From NCBI GenBank assembly GCA_048941265.1, contig JBHLNT010000103.1, positions 1 through 14,368 of the forward strand: a stretch of DNA of 14,368 nucleotides, given 5' to 3'. The position numbers and the translations under genes are program-made. Under the pieces are notes generated by a model. The model was not told the origin of the DNA and did not search any database. It was given only the letters and a program-made list of their open reading frames with translations. This DNA comes from Promethearchaeota archaeon. GTDB lineage: Archaea > Asgardarchaeota > Lokiarchaeia > Sigyniarchaeales > SOKP01. Below, piece by piece: positions 4,725-7,928 of this stretch (positions are counted from its first letter, which is position 1; each line of letters begins with the position of its first letter).

Positions 4725-5861
4725 ATGGTAATTAACAAATTAAAGAAGGAACTAAAAAGCAGAAGGAGAATTAACAAAGAGCAAGATTATATTGTCTCCT
4801 CCATAGTTAAAGAACCTTCTTTCCTTAAGAAAGGAATACTTACGAAAATAGAACATAGAACTGCTATAACCTCTTCTTTAAAAGAAAAGCAAGCCCCTCT
4901 TTCCGTGAAATTTCTTTTTCCGAATATGGAAATTAATCCCGAAGATAATGAAATTGATTCCAAGATAACTGCTTCTGAATTAGAAGAATGGAAAAAAAGT
5001 AAGAAATTCTATAAATCTTTGAATAAGTCTATTAAAAAGTTGGAATGGATTAAATATAACTTACAGATTAAGTCCAAACGAATAAAAAGTAAAAATATAG
5101 CTAATTTATCACAATCTTTGAGAAATGCCATCAAAGATATCGAGGTAGCTATAAATGAGATGAAAATAGGAGTCAATAAAACTAAGAACTTGCCGGTTCG
5201 AAACGATTTACAATTATATGATAAACGCGCTAATGAATTTCGACATAAAGATGTATTCGAGACAAAAATATACTTAATTAGGATGAATATTAAACCGGAA
5301 TCCATAGTAAATACATTAAAAATGGTCTTTCTTAGAAAAAAGATAGTGTTCTTGATGGAAGATAACTTAACGTATCTTAAAGACACTATTAATCATTTTT
5401 TTAATGCTATATTTCGTAATTCATTTGATATTGAAATTTTATCCTTAACTAAAACAGAATATAACGAGTTTAGAGATCGACATAAAGATTTTATAGTGAT
5501 TACTGGGAAAAAAATATTGGTAAACGATGGGAAAGAGAATTACGTGAAAAATTGCAAATTTGAGAAAAAATTAGTAGACATCTTTTTTAAAAATTCTGAT
5601 CCATTAACAGGACTAAAAATCCTGAGAAAGGAACTCCAAGAGATATATGATCTTTCAAATGAAATTCGAGATTTTAGTGCCCTTAATGATAATAAGCTTT
5701 CTCGTAGAAAAATGTTAAAACATCTGGAGCAGGTATTTTTTCTAAAAGTTAAGAAAAATTATTTTAATATACTCTTAGGTATTGTTAATACTTATTTTAA
5801 CAAAAAAATTAAATTTTCAGAGGATTATATCGAAGAAAAAATCGATACAATGTGGAGATAA
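4725..5861 (+). CDS. Hypothetical protein: Lys-rich coiled-coil-like N-terminus plus a C-terminal domain paralogous to 13167-14060
   Basis: 378-aa ORF. The last ~200 aa align by eye with the 297-aa protein (IRMNIKPE/IKMNLRPE, YLKDTI/FLKDTL, GLKILRKELQEIYDLSN/GLKNLRDKIREIYTLSN, EEKIDTMW/AEKIDNMW). Confidence 0.88.
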   Translation: MVINKLKKELKSRRRINKEQDYIVSSIVKEPSFLKKGILTKIEHRTAITSSLKEKQAPLSVKFLFPNMEINPEDNEIDSKITASELEEWKKSKKFYKSLNKSIKKLEWIKYNLQIKSKRIKSKNIANLSQSLRNAIKDIEVAINEMKIGVNKTKNLPVRNDLQLYDKRANEFRHKDVFETKIYLIRMNIKPESIVNTLKMVFLRKKIVFLMEDNLTYLKDTINHFFNAIFRNSFDIEILSLTKTEYNEFRDRHKDFIVITGKKILVNDGKENYVKNCKFEKKLVDIFFKNSDPLTGLKILRKELQEIYDLSNEIRDFSALNDNKLSRRKMLKHLEQVFFLKVKKNYFNILLGIVNTYFNKKIKFSEDYIEEKIDTMWR

Positions 5862-5932: not shown

Positions 5933-6055
5933 TTAATCACTATTGTCCTTCTTATTCTCCTCATCCTCCGTTGACGAATAAGATATATAGACAACCTCAT
6001 CCTTATCAAGAGATTGTAATATATCTTCTAAATTTTTAATTTTTTTCTTACTCAT
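5933..6055 (-). CDS. Small 40-aa protein absent from the ORF track: MSKKKIKNLEDILQSLDKDEVVYISYSSTEDEENKKDNSD
   Basis: ATG at 6055 with a strong Shine-Dalgarno GAGGTGA (6063-6069) 7 nt upstream. TAA at 5933-5935. Protein-like composition with a basic head and acidic tail. Confidence 0.65.
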   Translation of the reverse strand: MSKKKIKNLEDILQSLDKDEVVYISYSSTEDEENKKDNSD

Positions 6056-6100
6056 TTTCTTTTCACCTCTTTTTTTATGAATTTTCTTTTTCTTTTATTC

Positions 6101-6312
6101 TGAGGGAGTTAGATTTCCATTAGAATTAATAGATCTAAACCCGCCTCTTAGCATATTAGGAAGCGAGAAGTAATAAGAGCAGATAATAATAAAAAGCAGA
6201 GAAATCGCGAGAGACGGGTTTGGATGATCTAATGGACAGTCGGTACTACTTGCCTATTGCAAGCCGGTGCATCCATTCTTCTAGTCTGTGCGACTAAGTT
6301 AACTCGTCTCAT
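6101..6312. ncRNA. Candidate structured RNA (5' leader or standalone ncRNA), family not recognised
   Basis: Nested complementary segments 6101-6111/6300-6311, 6116-6124/6228-6236, 6133-6148/6210-6225, 6249-6253/6259-6263 and 6282-6286/6292-6296. GC content is higher than in the flanks. The promoter favours the minus strand and G-U pairs slightly favour the plus strand. Confidence 0.6.
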
Positions 6313-6335
6313 TGATTCATAAAAAGTCTGCCTCT

Positions 6336-6348
6336 TATATAAATTTGA
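6336..6348 (-). promoter_or_regulatory. BRE/TATA promoter candidate (TCAAA-TTTATATA on the minus strand)
   Basis: Consensus archaeal TATA box. Normal spacing places the start near 6312, exactly at the edge of the closing stem of the structured element. Confidence 0.55.
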
Positions 6349-6366
6349 TGGTTAGTATAGAAGTAT

Positions 6367-6384
6367 AGCGTAAAACTTTACGCT
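6367..6384. promoter_or_regulatory. Perfect palindrome AGCGTAAA-AC-TTTACGCT, candidate transcription factor site
   Basis: 8-bp arms with a 2-nt spacer, about 24 nt upstream of the minus-strand TATA box. Confidence 0.5.
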
Positions 6385-6467
6385 TTGAGGGGCTTTAATC
6401 CGAATTTCGAAAAAACAAAAACAATGGAAAAAAAAGAATAAAATTCTTTTTGTATAAATAAGGAAAA

Positions 6468-7928
6468 TTATTTGATTGTAAGATTATGGAGGGAGGCTTT
6501 TAACACACTTTCAAATTTATCACAGATATAATCTGCATCCTGTTCCGTAATTACGAGTGGTGGTTTAATTTTAATCAAATTATACATTAAGATTTTTCCT
6601 GTTCCGCTTAAGTATGGCATGCTAGGTCCAAAGAAAATATTCTGTCTTACGGCCTCTATAAGCATTTCATTTAATAATCCTTTATGTGGCTCTCTGGAGT
6701 CTTGATTTTCAACTAATTCGACTCCAATAAAAAGTCCTGGACCACGAATATCTCCAATCACTTCATATTTCTCTTGGAGCTCTTTAAGTCTCTTCGTAAT
6801 TTGTTTGCCCCTCTCTTCACAGTTTTCATTTATTTTCCCTTTTTCAATGACTTTAAAGGCAGCCAGTCCAGCTGTTAAACCTATTGGTGTATTACAAAAT
6901 GTAGTATGATCTTCTGATGGGGTAAATCTCTTTTTAATATTTGGACTTGCGATCATGGCGCCTAATGGAAATCCTCCCCCGATAGCTTTGGTGAAGCACA
7001 TCATATCGGGAGAAAGATCAATTCCCAATTCTTTTTCATACTTTTCTGTGAGAGTGAAATATTTTCCTGTTCTCCATACTCCTGTTTGAGACTCATCATA
7101 AATAATGAGAATTTTTTCTTGATCGCACACTTCTCTTAACTTTACAAGAAACTCCGGAGGAAAAGGAACATGTCCGCCTGCGGCTTGGCAAACTTCTAAT
7201 ATCACTGCTGCAAGTTTTCTTGAGCTTAATCCCGTTAAATATTCCTTAACTAATTCAAAACACTCTAAATTACACTGAGGGTCTTTTTTACCATACAATC
7301 CATTTTTATAATTCCACATGCACCGGTAGCAGTAGGGTTGGGGCACTCTTACAAAAGAATCTATGCCGAAGGAGCGAAATCTTGTTATAGTATGAATAGG
7401 TTGAGAAGCAGTTAACATGGCTAAAGTATTTCCATGATATCCACCTCGGAATACGAGAATCTGATCTGCTCCTTTCCCGGCAATTAATGCAAGCTTTATG
7501 GCAGCTTCAATTGCTAAACTGCCACCAGAATTATTTATATGAACTCTACCACCTTTTATTCTTCCCGAGACTAATTCAGATAATTTATTTGTAAATTTAG
7601 CTCGTGCTGGTGAAATAACAGAGGATTTGACGTGAGTGAATCGCTTCATTTGTTCAGAAACCGCATAATTCACATCAGGATGAGCGAATCCTAATGCTAA
7701 AGTCCAATTTTGGGAGGTGCAATCAATTATCTCTGCTGTTTCTCCAGTTTTAAGATCTTTTGTAATTACCCAAGGAGAACCTGGTTCTTTAGCTTCAATT
7801 AATACTTTATCTTCATAATGAACATTTAAACAATGATCCTCAAATAATAATAATTCCTCTGGATTTACATCCGCAGAAATTCTACTTAATTCTTCTTTAC
7901 TTACAATTTTGGGCTCAAAATCCGCCAT
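6468..7928 (-). CDS. Class III PLP-dependent aminotransferase (GabT/ArgD-like superfamily)
   Basis: Motifs LGFAHPDV, FRGGYHGNT, LIIYDESQTGVWRTG, PDMMCFTKAIGGGFPLGA (PLP lysine) and GDIRGPGLFIGVELV. Confidence 0.95.
   Translation of the reverse strand: MADFEPKIVSKEELSRISADVNPEELLLFEDHCLNVHYEDKVLIEAKEPGSPWVITKDLKTGETAEIIDCTSQNWTLALGFAHPDVNYAVSEQMKRFTHVKSSVISPARAKFTNKLSELVSGRIKGGRVHINNSGGSLAIEAAIKLALIAGKGADQILVFRGGYHGNTLAMLTASQPIHTITRFRSFGIDSFVRVPQPYCYRCMWNYKNGLYGKKDPQCNLECFELVKEYLTGLSSRKLAAVILEVCQAAGGHVPFPPEFLVKLREVCDQEKILIIYDESQTGVWRTGKYFTLTEKYEKELGIDLSPDMMCFTKAIGGGFPLGAMIASPNIKKRFTPSEDHTTFCNTPIGLTAGLAAFKVIEKGKINENCEERGKQITKRLKELQEKYEVIGDIRGPGLFIGVELVENQDSREPHKGLLNEMLIEAVRQNIFFGPSMPYLSGTGKILMYNLIKIKPPLVITEQDADYICDKFESVLKASLHNLTIK

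Follow-up and report, generated by a model that had tools for sequence, protein, structure and literature searches.

A family of structured leaders carrying short open frames in Lokiarchaeia-type Asgard archaea: candidates for ribosome-sensed attenuation upstream of tRNA arrays, lysine-biosynthesis genes and a 40-residue protein gene

Introduction

The DNA analysed here (the window) is a 14,368-nt stretch, contig JBHLNT010000103.1 of assembly GCA_048941265.1, and it holds an intergenic block whose GC content (0.35-0.48 over positions 6100-6299, against 0.19-0.29 in the flanks) sets it apart from its surroundings. What this block is, on which strand it is read and which gene it serves are the questions addressed below. 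An initial annotation made from the letters alone described it as a structured RNA with mutually exclusive pairings, lying between a TATA box and a hidden small ORF in a probable Asgard archaeon. The host is indeed an Asgard archaeon, and the unannotated structured leader with its mutually exclusive pairings is borne out by the comparative analysis.

Layout and strand of the unit

Judged from its sequence context, the structured block most likely forms the 5' leader of a unit on the minus strand, running from the TATA box through the leader into the gene of a 40-aa protein. The TATA box reads TTTATATA on the minus strand (6343-6336), and 23 nt separate it from the AUG of a short frame in the window copy. 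The parts of the unit are as follows.

To about 6351, minus strand: BRE-like block, conserved, just upstream of the TATA box
6336-6343, minus strand: TATA box TTTATATA, conserved in 5/5 versions; the sequence upstream is not alignable
6312-6101, minus strand: structured leader
6229-6312, minus strand: short leader ORF (AUG 6312-6310, 27 codons, UAG 6231-6229), predicted to be leaderless; its translation and the transcript start are putative
6300-6311, minus strand: strand a, overlapping codons 1-4; its partner is c (compact fold, P1') or a' (extended fold, P1)
6282-6296, minus strand: hairpin A, with pairs kept in 96.7% of cells
6229-6277, minus strand: helix PB (6277-6270 with 6238-6231), enclosing hairpin B (6263-6249)
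6236-6228, minus strand: strand b, pairing within the PB region or with b'
6210-6225, minus strand: strand c, the switching strand, core CGUCUC; its partner is a or c'
6180-6209, minus strand: tail after c, carrying a motif of the GAUUUCU type and, at 6195-6191, a U5 run; putative zone of termination or decision
6133-6148, minus strand: strand c', which lies downstream of c and forms helix P3 with it
6101-6124, minus strand: strands b' (6124-6116) and a' (6111-6101), completing the extended fold; specific to the window's subfamily
6063-6069, minus strand: GAGGUGA, ribosome-binding site for the 40-aa ORF, within a linker that is A-rich and unstructured; GAGGT core in 5/5 versions
5933-6055, minus strand: gene of a 40-aa acidic protein, which we read as the regulated gene; peptide conserved in five loci

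Five distinct full-length versions of the unit were found, in four genomes of one genus and in one metagenome variant, and the alignable sequence among them begins exactly at the promoter. The RNA and the 40-aa ORF always co-occur; in one genome the upstream gene differs, and the RNA and the ORF stay together. A covariance model of the RNA in its extended fold (R1) gives strong matches in 4 of 101 genomes, and a peptide model matches the same four genomes among 161 searched, the fifth version being the metagenome variant. Within the genus the unit is patchy, occurring in 4 of 10 genomes (the source genome included) and absent from two genomes that are 98-99% complete. Promoter conservation and this co-occurrence support the initial proposal that transcription is probably driven by the TATA box of the minus strand and reaches the small ORF; the public sequencing runs listed as containing the locus are all DNA runs. 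The same annotation had left the strand undecided, because several G-U pairs favour plus. We assign the unit to the minus strand because the conserved promoter, the folding z-scores and helix P3 all favour it.

Among the versions of the 40-aa gene, substitutions are distributed 64:33:116 over the three codon positions, which is a coding pattern; its ATG is replaced by ATA in two versions. With its many Lys, Asp, Glu and Ser residues the product is hydrophilic and highly charged, and it has no hydrophobic stretch. A peptide search with it returned only itself and the one metagenome variant, a protein atlas search gave no usable match, and Pfam gave nothing. The type I toxin-antitoxin pair that had been offered as one possible function finds no support, given the charged, hydrophilic product and the lack of a conserved plus-strand promoter; a riboswitch, another of the options, fares no better (below), and the attenuator-like leader fits best.

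Folding of the window copy

The features on which the initial annotation was based all lie at the coordinates it gave, namely the closing stem (6101-6111 with 6300-6311), the 16-bp stem (6133-6148 with 6210-6225, 88% complementary), the 9-bp stem (6116-6124 with 6228-6236), the small hairpins at 6249-6263 and 6282-6296, the TATA box, the GAGGTGA motif (6069-6063) and the 40-codon ORF (6055-5933). The second partner of 6231-6236 is likewise found at 6272-6277, and the minus-strand helix at that place extends to 8 bp (6277-6270 with 6238-6231). Folding energy against shuffles, a check the annotation had proposed, gives a minimum of -60.6 kcal/mol on the plus strand (z -2.37; 3/200 shuffles fold as well) and -54.8 kcal/mol on the minus strand (z -2.26; 4/200), so that on both strands the window sequence taken alone folds better than most shuffles and only moderately better than chance. 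We judge the feature to be real because of its conservation, not because of its folding energy.

Across the versions the folding z-scores range from -1.8 to -3.2 on the minus strand versus -1.1 to -2.3 on the plus strand, and in the two versions that diverge most, helix P3 (c:c') is better kept on the minus strand. The 5' half, taken from the four genomes, folds by itself with z-scores from -2.2 to -5.2, and together with the tail after c it forms the best-conserved block; this self-folding, strongly conserved half had escaped the first reading. The tail is conserved within an otherwise variable loop, and the same motif recurs in other subfamilies. Helix b:b' is weakened in 2 of the 5 versions, and hairpin B carries one compensatory change from C-G to U-A. 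Among these five sequences neither fold shows covariation beyond shuffles, about half of which reach the observed values. The window leader contains no hairpin directly trailed by a U run, its U5 run lying 14 nt after c. The GAGGUGA site falls outside the paired region in both predicted folds; its sequestration by strand c (7 bp, two of them G-U) was set aside because a and c' are better partners.

Database searches assign the block to no established class. Rfam, named in the initial annotation as the first check of novelty, gives no relevant match on either strand, with none relevant at E up to 10 in 5950-6480 and none at gathering score in the window; the relatives described below also give nothing, the five dapA/asd loci examined being without a match at E up to 0.5. 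A riboswitch is disfavoured by the missing Rfam match and by inner helices that vary between subfamilies, hence no conserved ligand pocket. SRP RNA and RNase P RNA were rejected as identities, both being encoded on other contigs of the genome. A repeat or MITE was rejected because BLAST detects only one copy of the block in its own genome. A tRNA scan of the window found none, and inspection of the sequence by eye fitted no C/D box, H/ACA, K-turn, hammerhead or BHB motif.

A wider family of leaders

A covariance model finds 22 relatives within one Lokiarchaeial family, and these precede tRNA arrays, the lysine-biosynthesis genes dapA or asd, or the 40-aa gene; a family in such positions was not seen in the initial annotation. 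A model built from the tRNA-array copies only recovers the window copy in a genome-wide search with an E-value of 2.8e-4. In the 22-member alignment the paired cells amount to 88.7%, and both sides vary in 10 of the 21 pairs, values that none of 500 shuffles reaches and that compare with 34-54% paired in slid controls, although the members are related, so the counts overstate independence, and the alignment is fitted to the model's structure. Paired changes beyond shuffles, expected by the first reading for a functional RNA, are seen in the 22-member family and not among the five sequences of the window's subfamily.

What all subfamilies share is limited to the closing helix with its flanks and to portions of two hairpins; the inner helices differ, and in the window's subfamily the interior is built on another plan. 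In 15 of the 22 members the c' partner scores above 95% of shuffles, lying at a distance that is specific to the subfamily, and in the other 7/22 it is not significant. In one member an a:c pair is changed from A-U to U-A and its c' changes along. By sequence comparison, the predicted alternative pairing is a trait of the family.

Besides the four copies in the genus, model R1 detects among its 101 genomes partial 5' matches in another genus, in which the frame is interrupted at codon 3 and the RNA fails to fold (z +1.2); these look like decayed remnants. A pattern scan of 400 genomes of the phylum yielded seven further matches outside the family, which look like chance, the reversed-pattern controls being matched in 11 genomes.

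A conserved short frame and its codon content

The leader has a conserved short frame of its own, which the initial annotation did not list. It is open for 21-33 codons in 22/22 members; in 20/22 the +1 frame already meets a stop at codon 0, and the +2 frame reaches 21 codons in 4/22. In the window its stop codon (UAG 6231-6229) ends 12 nt before the core of c, and a distance of 10-15 nt is kept in 21/22 members, the exception being one dapA copy in which it is 30 nt. From TATA box to start codon there are 23-25 nt in 13/13 members of the tRNA-heading and 40-aa groups, and the dapA/asd copies have an extra in-frame ATG 6 nt upstream that restores a spacing of 24-25 nt in most of them. A TATA-to-AUG distance of 23-25 nt fits the usual archaeal spacing for a transcript that starts at the start codon.

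Substitutions in the 27-codon frame are distributed 20:45:33 over the codon positions, a pattern by which a conserved protein was rejected. Read in this way, the peptide sequence of the frame is unconstrained, which would suit a leader peptide and equally an untranslated RNA. Its composition follows the genes lying downstream. Of the eight copies located before dapA or asd, seven carry 5-9 Lys, the exception being one asd copy with only 2; in these copies the in-frame Lys codons average 5.9 versus 2.4 and 2.3 in the other frames, and the averages are 0.8 in the tRNA copies and 0.25 in the 40-aa copies. The leaders of the His-Ala-Gln-Tyr-Asp-Gly-Thr-Cys-Glu-Pro tRNA array contain all ten of these amino acids in 4 of 5 loci, and the divergent Asn-Phe-Ile-Lys-Val-Arg-Trp-Met-Leu array is headed by an unrelated leaderless frame that uses almost only its own set. 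The match to array composition has a Fisher p of 3.7e-7 to 1.5e-3 per locus with flat off-frame controls; a strict codon-anticodon match to the array tRNAs is weaker than the amino-acid match (9-17 of 28 and 15-19 of 24-27 codons). No codon bias linking the window's leader peptide to the 40-aa gene is evident. Since tRNA genes are not controllable via their own translation, a mechanism shared by the family must act on transcription or on RNA fate.

Proposed mechanism and alternatives

The anatomy of these leaders, their conservation and the genes that they precede are observed, and from them we propose that the window block is probably a member of a family of ribosome-sensed attenuators based on a leaderless short ORF, found in one Lokiarchaeia-type Asgard family. 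The transcript is predicted to begin at the AUG at 6312 and so to open a leaderless frame of 27 codons, which would cross the self-folding 5' half and end 12 nt before strand c. Strand c could pair with a, which overlaps the start codon, and thereby close a compact junction; alternatively it could pair with c' about 70 nt downstream, and in the window's subfamily b:b' and a:a' would then zip up into a long extended hairpin. A ribosome stalled anywhere in the short frame would block a:c closure, the polymerase would pass the U-rich tract after c and reach c', and c:c' would fix a read-through form from which the downstream gene is expressed. With fast translation of the frame, or with none, a:c would close and the transcript would end in the U-rich tract. 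The transcript start, the translation of the frame, the site of termination and the fold that stands for "on" are in this scheme what we infer.

For the family as a whole, we put the chances at about even that leaderless-ORF attenuation operates throughout, such that both divergent tRNA arrays would be autoregulated by leader peptides sampling the amino acids of their own tRNAs, the lysine genes would be governed by a Lys-rich version, and the window copy would be a paralogue through which this sensor of translational status also governs the 40-aa acidic protein.

The alternative that retains most is a non-coding structured leader or an independent small RNA of some 100-130 nt. A protein or ligand would recognise its conserved closing helix, and the open frame would be incidental. 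Transcription of the 5' domain would start at a promoter of its own and stop in the U-rich tail, and c', b' and a', located in the next transcript or in read-through RNA, would pair with it. That the 5' half and the tail are the best-conserved parts and fold alone, that the U-rich tail is present in all subfamilies and that the frame shows no amino-acid constraint all agree with such an RNA, and the TATA-like boxes found inside the spacer of the tRNA-array copies would permit a separate downstream promoter. We nevertheless regard it as unlikely, since it leaves unexplained why the frame is open in every member with the other frames closed, why its stop lies at a near-constant distance before c in 21/22 and why the peptide content tracks the downstream genes; the inner helices, unconserved between subfamilies, argue against a ligand pocket, and no Rfam family matches.

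The second alternative keeps the attenuator and reverses its sense. The sequence data do not impose one role on c', and the opposite logic is compatible with them: c:c' with the next U-rich stretch would form the terminator and a:c the anti-terminator, so that stalled ribosomes would shut expression off and efficient translation or a free leader would permit it, a behaviour that in the tRNA arrays would resemble stringent control. Consistent with this are the U4-5 after c' in the dapA/asd copies, the U3-U6 after c' in two tRNA-array copies and the fact that c:c' is the stronger helix. Several members have no U run after c', however, and it would be maladaptive to turn off lysine-biosynthesis genes when lysine is short, or a tRNA array when its own tRNAs are limiting; we give this logic a somewhat smaller chance than the non-coding leader. 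Archaeal termination rules, it may be added, differ from bacterial ones.

That the short frame encodes a functional basic micropeptide, paired in the window with the acidic 40-aa product, the helices being secondary, is very improbable. The frame is conserved, an N-terminal MRR and Y-S-x-C-Y-like motifs recur in the tRNA-heading and dapA/asd copies, and the window unit would yield one basic and one acidic small product; the recurring residues, however, are encoded by strand a and by both arms of a hairpin with compensatory changes, codon position 2 is the most substituted, and the peptides diverge widely between subfamilies, tracking the downstream genes. A DNA-level palindrome (a mobile-element end or a protein-binding inverted repeat) or a plus-strand antisense RNA is hardly credible: the long imperfect inverted repeat with its 11-bp perfect outer repeat (6072-6082 with 6315-6325), the patchy distribution within the genus and some helix P2 substitutions that give G-U pairs on the plus strand only point that way, but the DNA is single-copy in its genome, one relative lacks the outer repeat, the two arms are very unequally conserved, no conserved plus-strand promoter or terminator exists, and the frame and the family contexts are left unaccounted for.

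Relation to known systems

Leader-peptide attenuation is a textbook bacterial mechanism, exemplified by transcription attenuators of the trpL, hisL, thrL and pheL type. The proposed ribosome-sensed leaders have in common with these a short leader frame (here predicted to be translated) that carries codons for the amino acid of the pathway (here evident in the dapA/asd and tRNA-array copies), a stop just before a strand with two alternative partners, a U-rich tract downstream and a control that needs transcription-translation coupling. They differ from them in the archaeal host, in a frame predicted to be leaderless, so that the start codon lies within a switching strand, in the use of three switching strands instead of four without a canonical hairpin-plus-U terminator, in putative sensor codons that are dispersed and not in a run, and in the genes controlled, which for some members would be tRNA arrays and for the window copy a 40-aa gene. 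With riboswitches, including that for lysine (RF00168), they share a leader in which the 3' strand of the closing helix can pair instead with a sequence farther downstream, and with the lysine riboswitch the position of some members before lysine-biosynthesis genes; unlike riboswitches, neither the window nor the dapA/asd copies match Rfam, the inner helices vary and an open frame is conserved.

A further parallel is provided by the leaderless polycysteine short-ORF attenuators of mycobacteria, in which a stalled ribosome is reported to prevent formation of an RNA structure (bioRxiv 10.1101/834739). Like the leaders proposed here, these have a leaderless short ORF as first cistron and apply one sensing principle at many loci (the "ribulon" idea). 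The structure blocked in mycobacteria hides the ribosome site of the next gene and thus exerts translational control (bioRxiv 10.1101/834739), whereas the corresponding site here lies in the unpaired A-rich linker; unlike the mycobacterial type, the family includes tRNA-array members that are not controllable through translation, and the domain of life and the sequence family differ.

Implications

Our search of a literature library that includes few subscription journals found no report of archaeal leader-peptide attenuation, nor of short ORFs placed ahead of tRNA arrays. If the proposed mechanism is true, it would constitute the first case of leader-peptide attenuation known from Archaea and the first such feedback on tRNA genes, and it would mean that transcription and translation in an Asgard archaeon are coupled tightly enough for ribosomes to steer the polymerase. 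It would also offer a testable route by which archaeal tRNA supply is matched to decoding demand without ppGpp, and its compact signature (promoter, 5' AUG, closing helix and downstream competitor strand) could guide the search for further leaders. In the window, what was an orphan hairpin would become a regulated unit, and the 40-aa acidic protein would be flagged as tied to translational status.

The structured block and its host

Read directly, the sequence contains every element of the intergenic block listed in the initial annotation, each where it was placed. Minimum-energy folding of either strand yields all three long-range helices and both small hairpins, and an inverted-repeat scan recovered the 16-bp arm pair as well as an additional perfect 11-bp outer pair (6072-6082 with 6315-6325). 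GC content is also higher within the block (0.35-0.48) than on either side of it (0.19-0.29), as had been claimed. Folding of the window's single sequence, judged against shuffles as the initial annotation proposed, is better than chance to a moderate degree only (plus strand, z = -2.37, 3 of 200 shuffles equally good; minus strand, z = -2.26, 4 of 200). No Rfam family reached its gathering score in the window, and in 5950-6480 none appeared even with the E limit relaxed to 10. The earlier view that the block is not SRP RNA, RNase P RNA or a tRNA is borne out: the genome's SRP and RNase P RNA genes lie on other contigs, and ARAGORN found no tRNA in the window. By BLAST, the block occurs once in its own genome.

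Features of the window around the block
7928-6468, minus: class-III aminotransferase gene, first in the minus-strand order, upstream of the TATA box
minus, in this order: aminotransferase gene, TATA box, structured block, GAGGUGA, 40-aa ORF
6055-5933, minus: 40-aa ORF, last in the minus-strand order
4725-5861, plus: 378-aa ORF without Pfam match, converging on the leader/40-aa unit
863-1765, plus: Fic/DOC-family gene, immediately after the rRNA end

The host had been taken for an Asgard archaeon, in agreement with the relatives that carry the same element, which are Promethearchaeia, Promethearchaeota or Hermodarchaeota MAGs. In the Rfam search the window start (1-396) matched an archaeal 23S rRNA at its 3' end, with some 200 nt inserted between model positions 2882 and 2883; Asgard rRNAs reportedly have enlarged expansion segments, of which this insertion is reminiscent. 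The 378-aa ORF, which sits between the 40-aa ORF and two conserved membrane-protein genes, is missing at the corresponding position in two relatives and thus looks like an insertion.

Conservation, coding potential and strand

A BLAST search of 61 relatives recovered the block from three further genomes within the genus, at full length in two (87% and 78% identity) and in part in one (74%), and an exact-pattern scan added a fifth distinct version from metagenome contigs (two identical records). In a covariance-model search of 101 family genomes with the extended fold described below, only these four matched strongly, and a profile of the 40-aa peptide matched these four among 161 of the class; the RNA and the ORF therefore travel together. 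Their linkage is unbroken in one genome whose upstream gene differs, and in another genome of the genus a different gene occupies the site adjoining the conserved membrane-protein genes. When 5.8 billion proteins were searched with the 40-aa product, only the window's own and the metagenome variant matched. Substitutions distributed 64:33:116 over the codon positions (summed over six genome pairs) mark this ORF as coding. Frame and peptide are retained in all five versions; the start codon is ATG in three, and ATA replaces it in the other two (homologues L010 and L012), which would either use a non-AUG start or couple initiation to something upstream.

The initial annotation had left the strand unresolved, with G-U pairs favouring the plus strand; taken together, the comparisons settle on the minus strand. 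Alignability begins at the BRE/TATA block, nothing ahead of it being alignable, and no conserved plus-strand promoter or T-run was found among the homologues. Folding z-scores over the five versions are -2.3, -3.2, -3.0, -3.0 and -1.8 on the minus strand and -2.3, -2.1, -1.8, -1.1 and -1.4 on the plus strand. Helix P3 in the two most divergent versions reaches -21.0 and -18.5 kcal/mol on the minus strand versus -12.4 and -12.3 on the plus strand; helix P2 shows the opposite trend in one version (-7.7 versus -11.7).

Another genus has partial window-type leaders (L035 1501-1610, minus; L036 1501-1629, plus; L040, L041, L046, L048) that cover about the first 70 nt after a TATA-like box with equal spacing. 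Their frame ends at codon 3, the RNA is unfolded (z +1.2), and the ORF downstream has, by eye, a GIY-YIG-type appearance. They are probably decayed remnants.

Two folds of the window-type leader

The 5' half on the minus strand (6312-6205) is far better conserved than the 3' half and folds alone into a junction (z of -2.2, -3.7, -5.2 and -2.6 in the four genomes).

Elements of the 5'-half junction
6311-6300 (strand a) with the CGUCUC core of strand c (within 6225-6210), minus: closing helix P1'
minus: hairpin A
minus: helix built on the second partner named in the initial annotation, enclosing hairpin B

The 3' half carries strands c', b' and a', ordered for pairing with c, b and a in an extended fold (P3, P2 and P1, respectively). 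The two alternative folds proposed earlier thus belong to a more extensive switch, with two partners available to each of c, b and a. Among the five sequences, pairing is kept in 90.9% and 95.2% of cells for the two folds versus 28-49% in slid controls. Covariation, which the initial annotation had recommended testing, showed no excess over shuffles for these five sequences, about half of 500 shuffles reaching the observed values. A conserved U5 run lies at 6195-6191.

A wider family of leaders

A model of the 5' half only returned weak matches that share both end sequences and differ in the interior, one of them with A-U swapped to U-A in P1'. Scanning 400 phylum genomes with a gapped pattern for the two ends gave chance-looking matches about as numerous as those of the reversed control, together with a second subfamily, which is flanked by two large, divergently oriented tRNA gene arrays. 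A family model built solely from six tRNA-array copies found 21 places in 13 genomes among 135 of the family and recovered the window's copy at E 2.8e-4. In the alignment of 22 matches, 88.7% of cells are paired versus 34-54% in slid controls, both partners vary at 10 of 21 pairs and none of 500 shuffles reaches the observed values, although the alignment was fitted to the model, which favours structure, and its members are related.

The 21 places include a second, weaker leader in the window's own genome, on another contig (C258:2887-3014, plus; locus L098 1501-1628; E 0.0026 genome-wide). Its frame has 29 codons, a single tRNA-Ala gene follows some 115 nt downstream, and the match between c and c' is poor.

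All 22 members have an open frame from a 5' AUG (21-33 codons, mostly 27-29); the +1 frame is shut at the first codon in 20, and the +2 frame is as long as 21 codons in four. The stop codon ends 10-15 nt ahead of the c core in 21 of the 22 (12 nt in the window). The distance from TATA box to AUG is 23-25 nt in window-type and tRNA-type copies, and an extra in-frame ATG 6 nt upstream regains it in most dapA/asd copies; such spacing fits, for an archaeal promoter, a predicted transcript start at the AUG. Since strand a overlaps codons 1-4, the a:c helix would bury the start codon. Substitutions of 20:45:33 per codon position show that the peptide sequence is free of constraint in the window's subfamily.

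In 15 of 22 members, c has a downstream partner better than 95% of shuffles, at a distance characteristic of the subfamily: about 57-67 nt for most dapA/asd copies, 68 nt for window-type copies and 98-108 nt for most tRNA-heading copies. The member with an altered a:c pair has an altered c' too. Beyond c come a tail with a common GAUUUCU-type motif and a U-rich spacer.

Downstream genes and peptide content

Nine of the 22 copies lie ahead of tRNA genes: six head the same-strand array His-Ala-Gln-Tyr-Asp-Gly-Thr-Cys-Glu-Pro, two precede a single tRNA and one is ended by a contig edge. Eight precede dapA and/or asd (DHDPS and semialdehyde dehydrogenase, confirmed by Pfam), four are of the window type, and one lies ahead of a 161-aa ORF that has no Pfam match. 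The dapA/asd leader peptides contain 5-9 Lys in seven of eight copies. Their Lys codons average 5.9 in frame but 2.4 and 2.3 in the two alternative frames, and the in-frame mean is 0.8 for tRNA copies and 0.25 for window-type copies. The dapA leader of the window's genome (contig C106; L102 2386-2673, minus) retains c and c' with the U-rich spacer separating them; the contig ends within the leader, so that the assembly lacks the short frame. The window's leader peptide has no bias linkable to the 40-aa gene.

At L082, L083, L084 and L085 (about 3.1 kb each) and at L088, L099 and L065, two arrays of 11-13 tRNA genes apiece point away from one another inside a stretch of about 3 kb, in a gene order shared by several genera; each array is preceded by its own TATA-proximal short ORF mirroring the array's tRNAs in amino acids. 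All ten amino acids of the His-to-Pro array occur in its leader peptide at four of five loci holding both arrays. The short frame ahead of the opposite array (Asn-Phe-Ile-Lys-Val-Arg-Trp-Met-Arg-Ile-Lys-Leu) is unrelated in sequence to the window's family, and in it 18-23 of 24-27 post-start residues are drawn from that array's set. This restriction is common to three widely differing peptide sequences, off-frame translations are flat, and Fisher tests on composition gave 3.7e-7 to 1.5e-3 per locus. Under strict wobble the match is looser, with 9-17 of 28 and 15-19 of 24-27 codons readable by the array's own tRNAs, the arrays being clipped in the 3-kb loci.

Proposed mechanism

We infer that ribosome-mediated attenuation operates through the leader, an account resting throughout on comparative sequence analysis; the public sequencing runs listed for the locus are all DNA. 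Because tRNA arrays are not controllable via their own translation, the shared step would be transcription termination or RNA fate. The compact form closed by a:c and followed by the U-rich tract would be the 'off' state, whereas c:c' would mark read-through, accompanied by b:b' and a:a' in the window's subfamily. A ribosome inside the short frame would block a:c, and stall-induced expression would be adaptive for lysine genes and tRNA arrays, which argues for this polarity. The reverse logic, also compatible with the sequence, seems less likely; we put forward a:c as 'off' tentatively, with less confidence than attenuation itself.

Bacterial leader-peptide attenuators are the closest known systems, and the mycobacterial leaderless polycysteine short-ORF attenuators are likewise close (bioRxiv 10.1101/834739). 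Unlike in these, the host here is an archaeon, the start codon lies within a switching strand, there are three switching strands rather than four, sensor codons are dispersed and tRNA arrays are targets. A literature search covering few subscription journals found no report of archaeal leader-peptide attenuation or tRNA-array short ORFs. A 2019 survey placed archaeal tRNA clusters in at least two euryarchaeal classes, its excerpted text leaving their leaders and promoters unmentioned (PMC6333295).

The initial annotation is thus confirmed in what it observed and partly right in its interpretation (an attenuator-like leader, minus strand, Asgard host), the decisive features, namely the conserved short frame and the family, having been overlooked. 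It seems rather probable that these leaders of Lokiarchaeial relatives, the window's copy included, are a family of ribosome-sensed attenuators.
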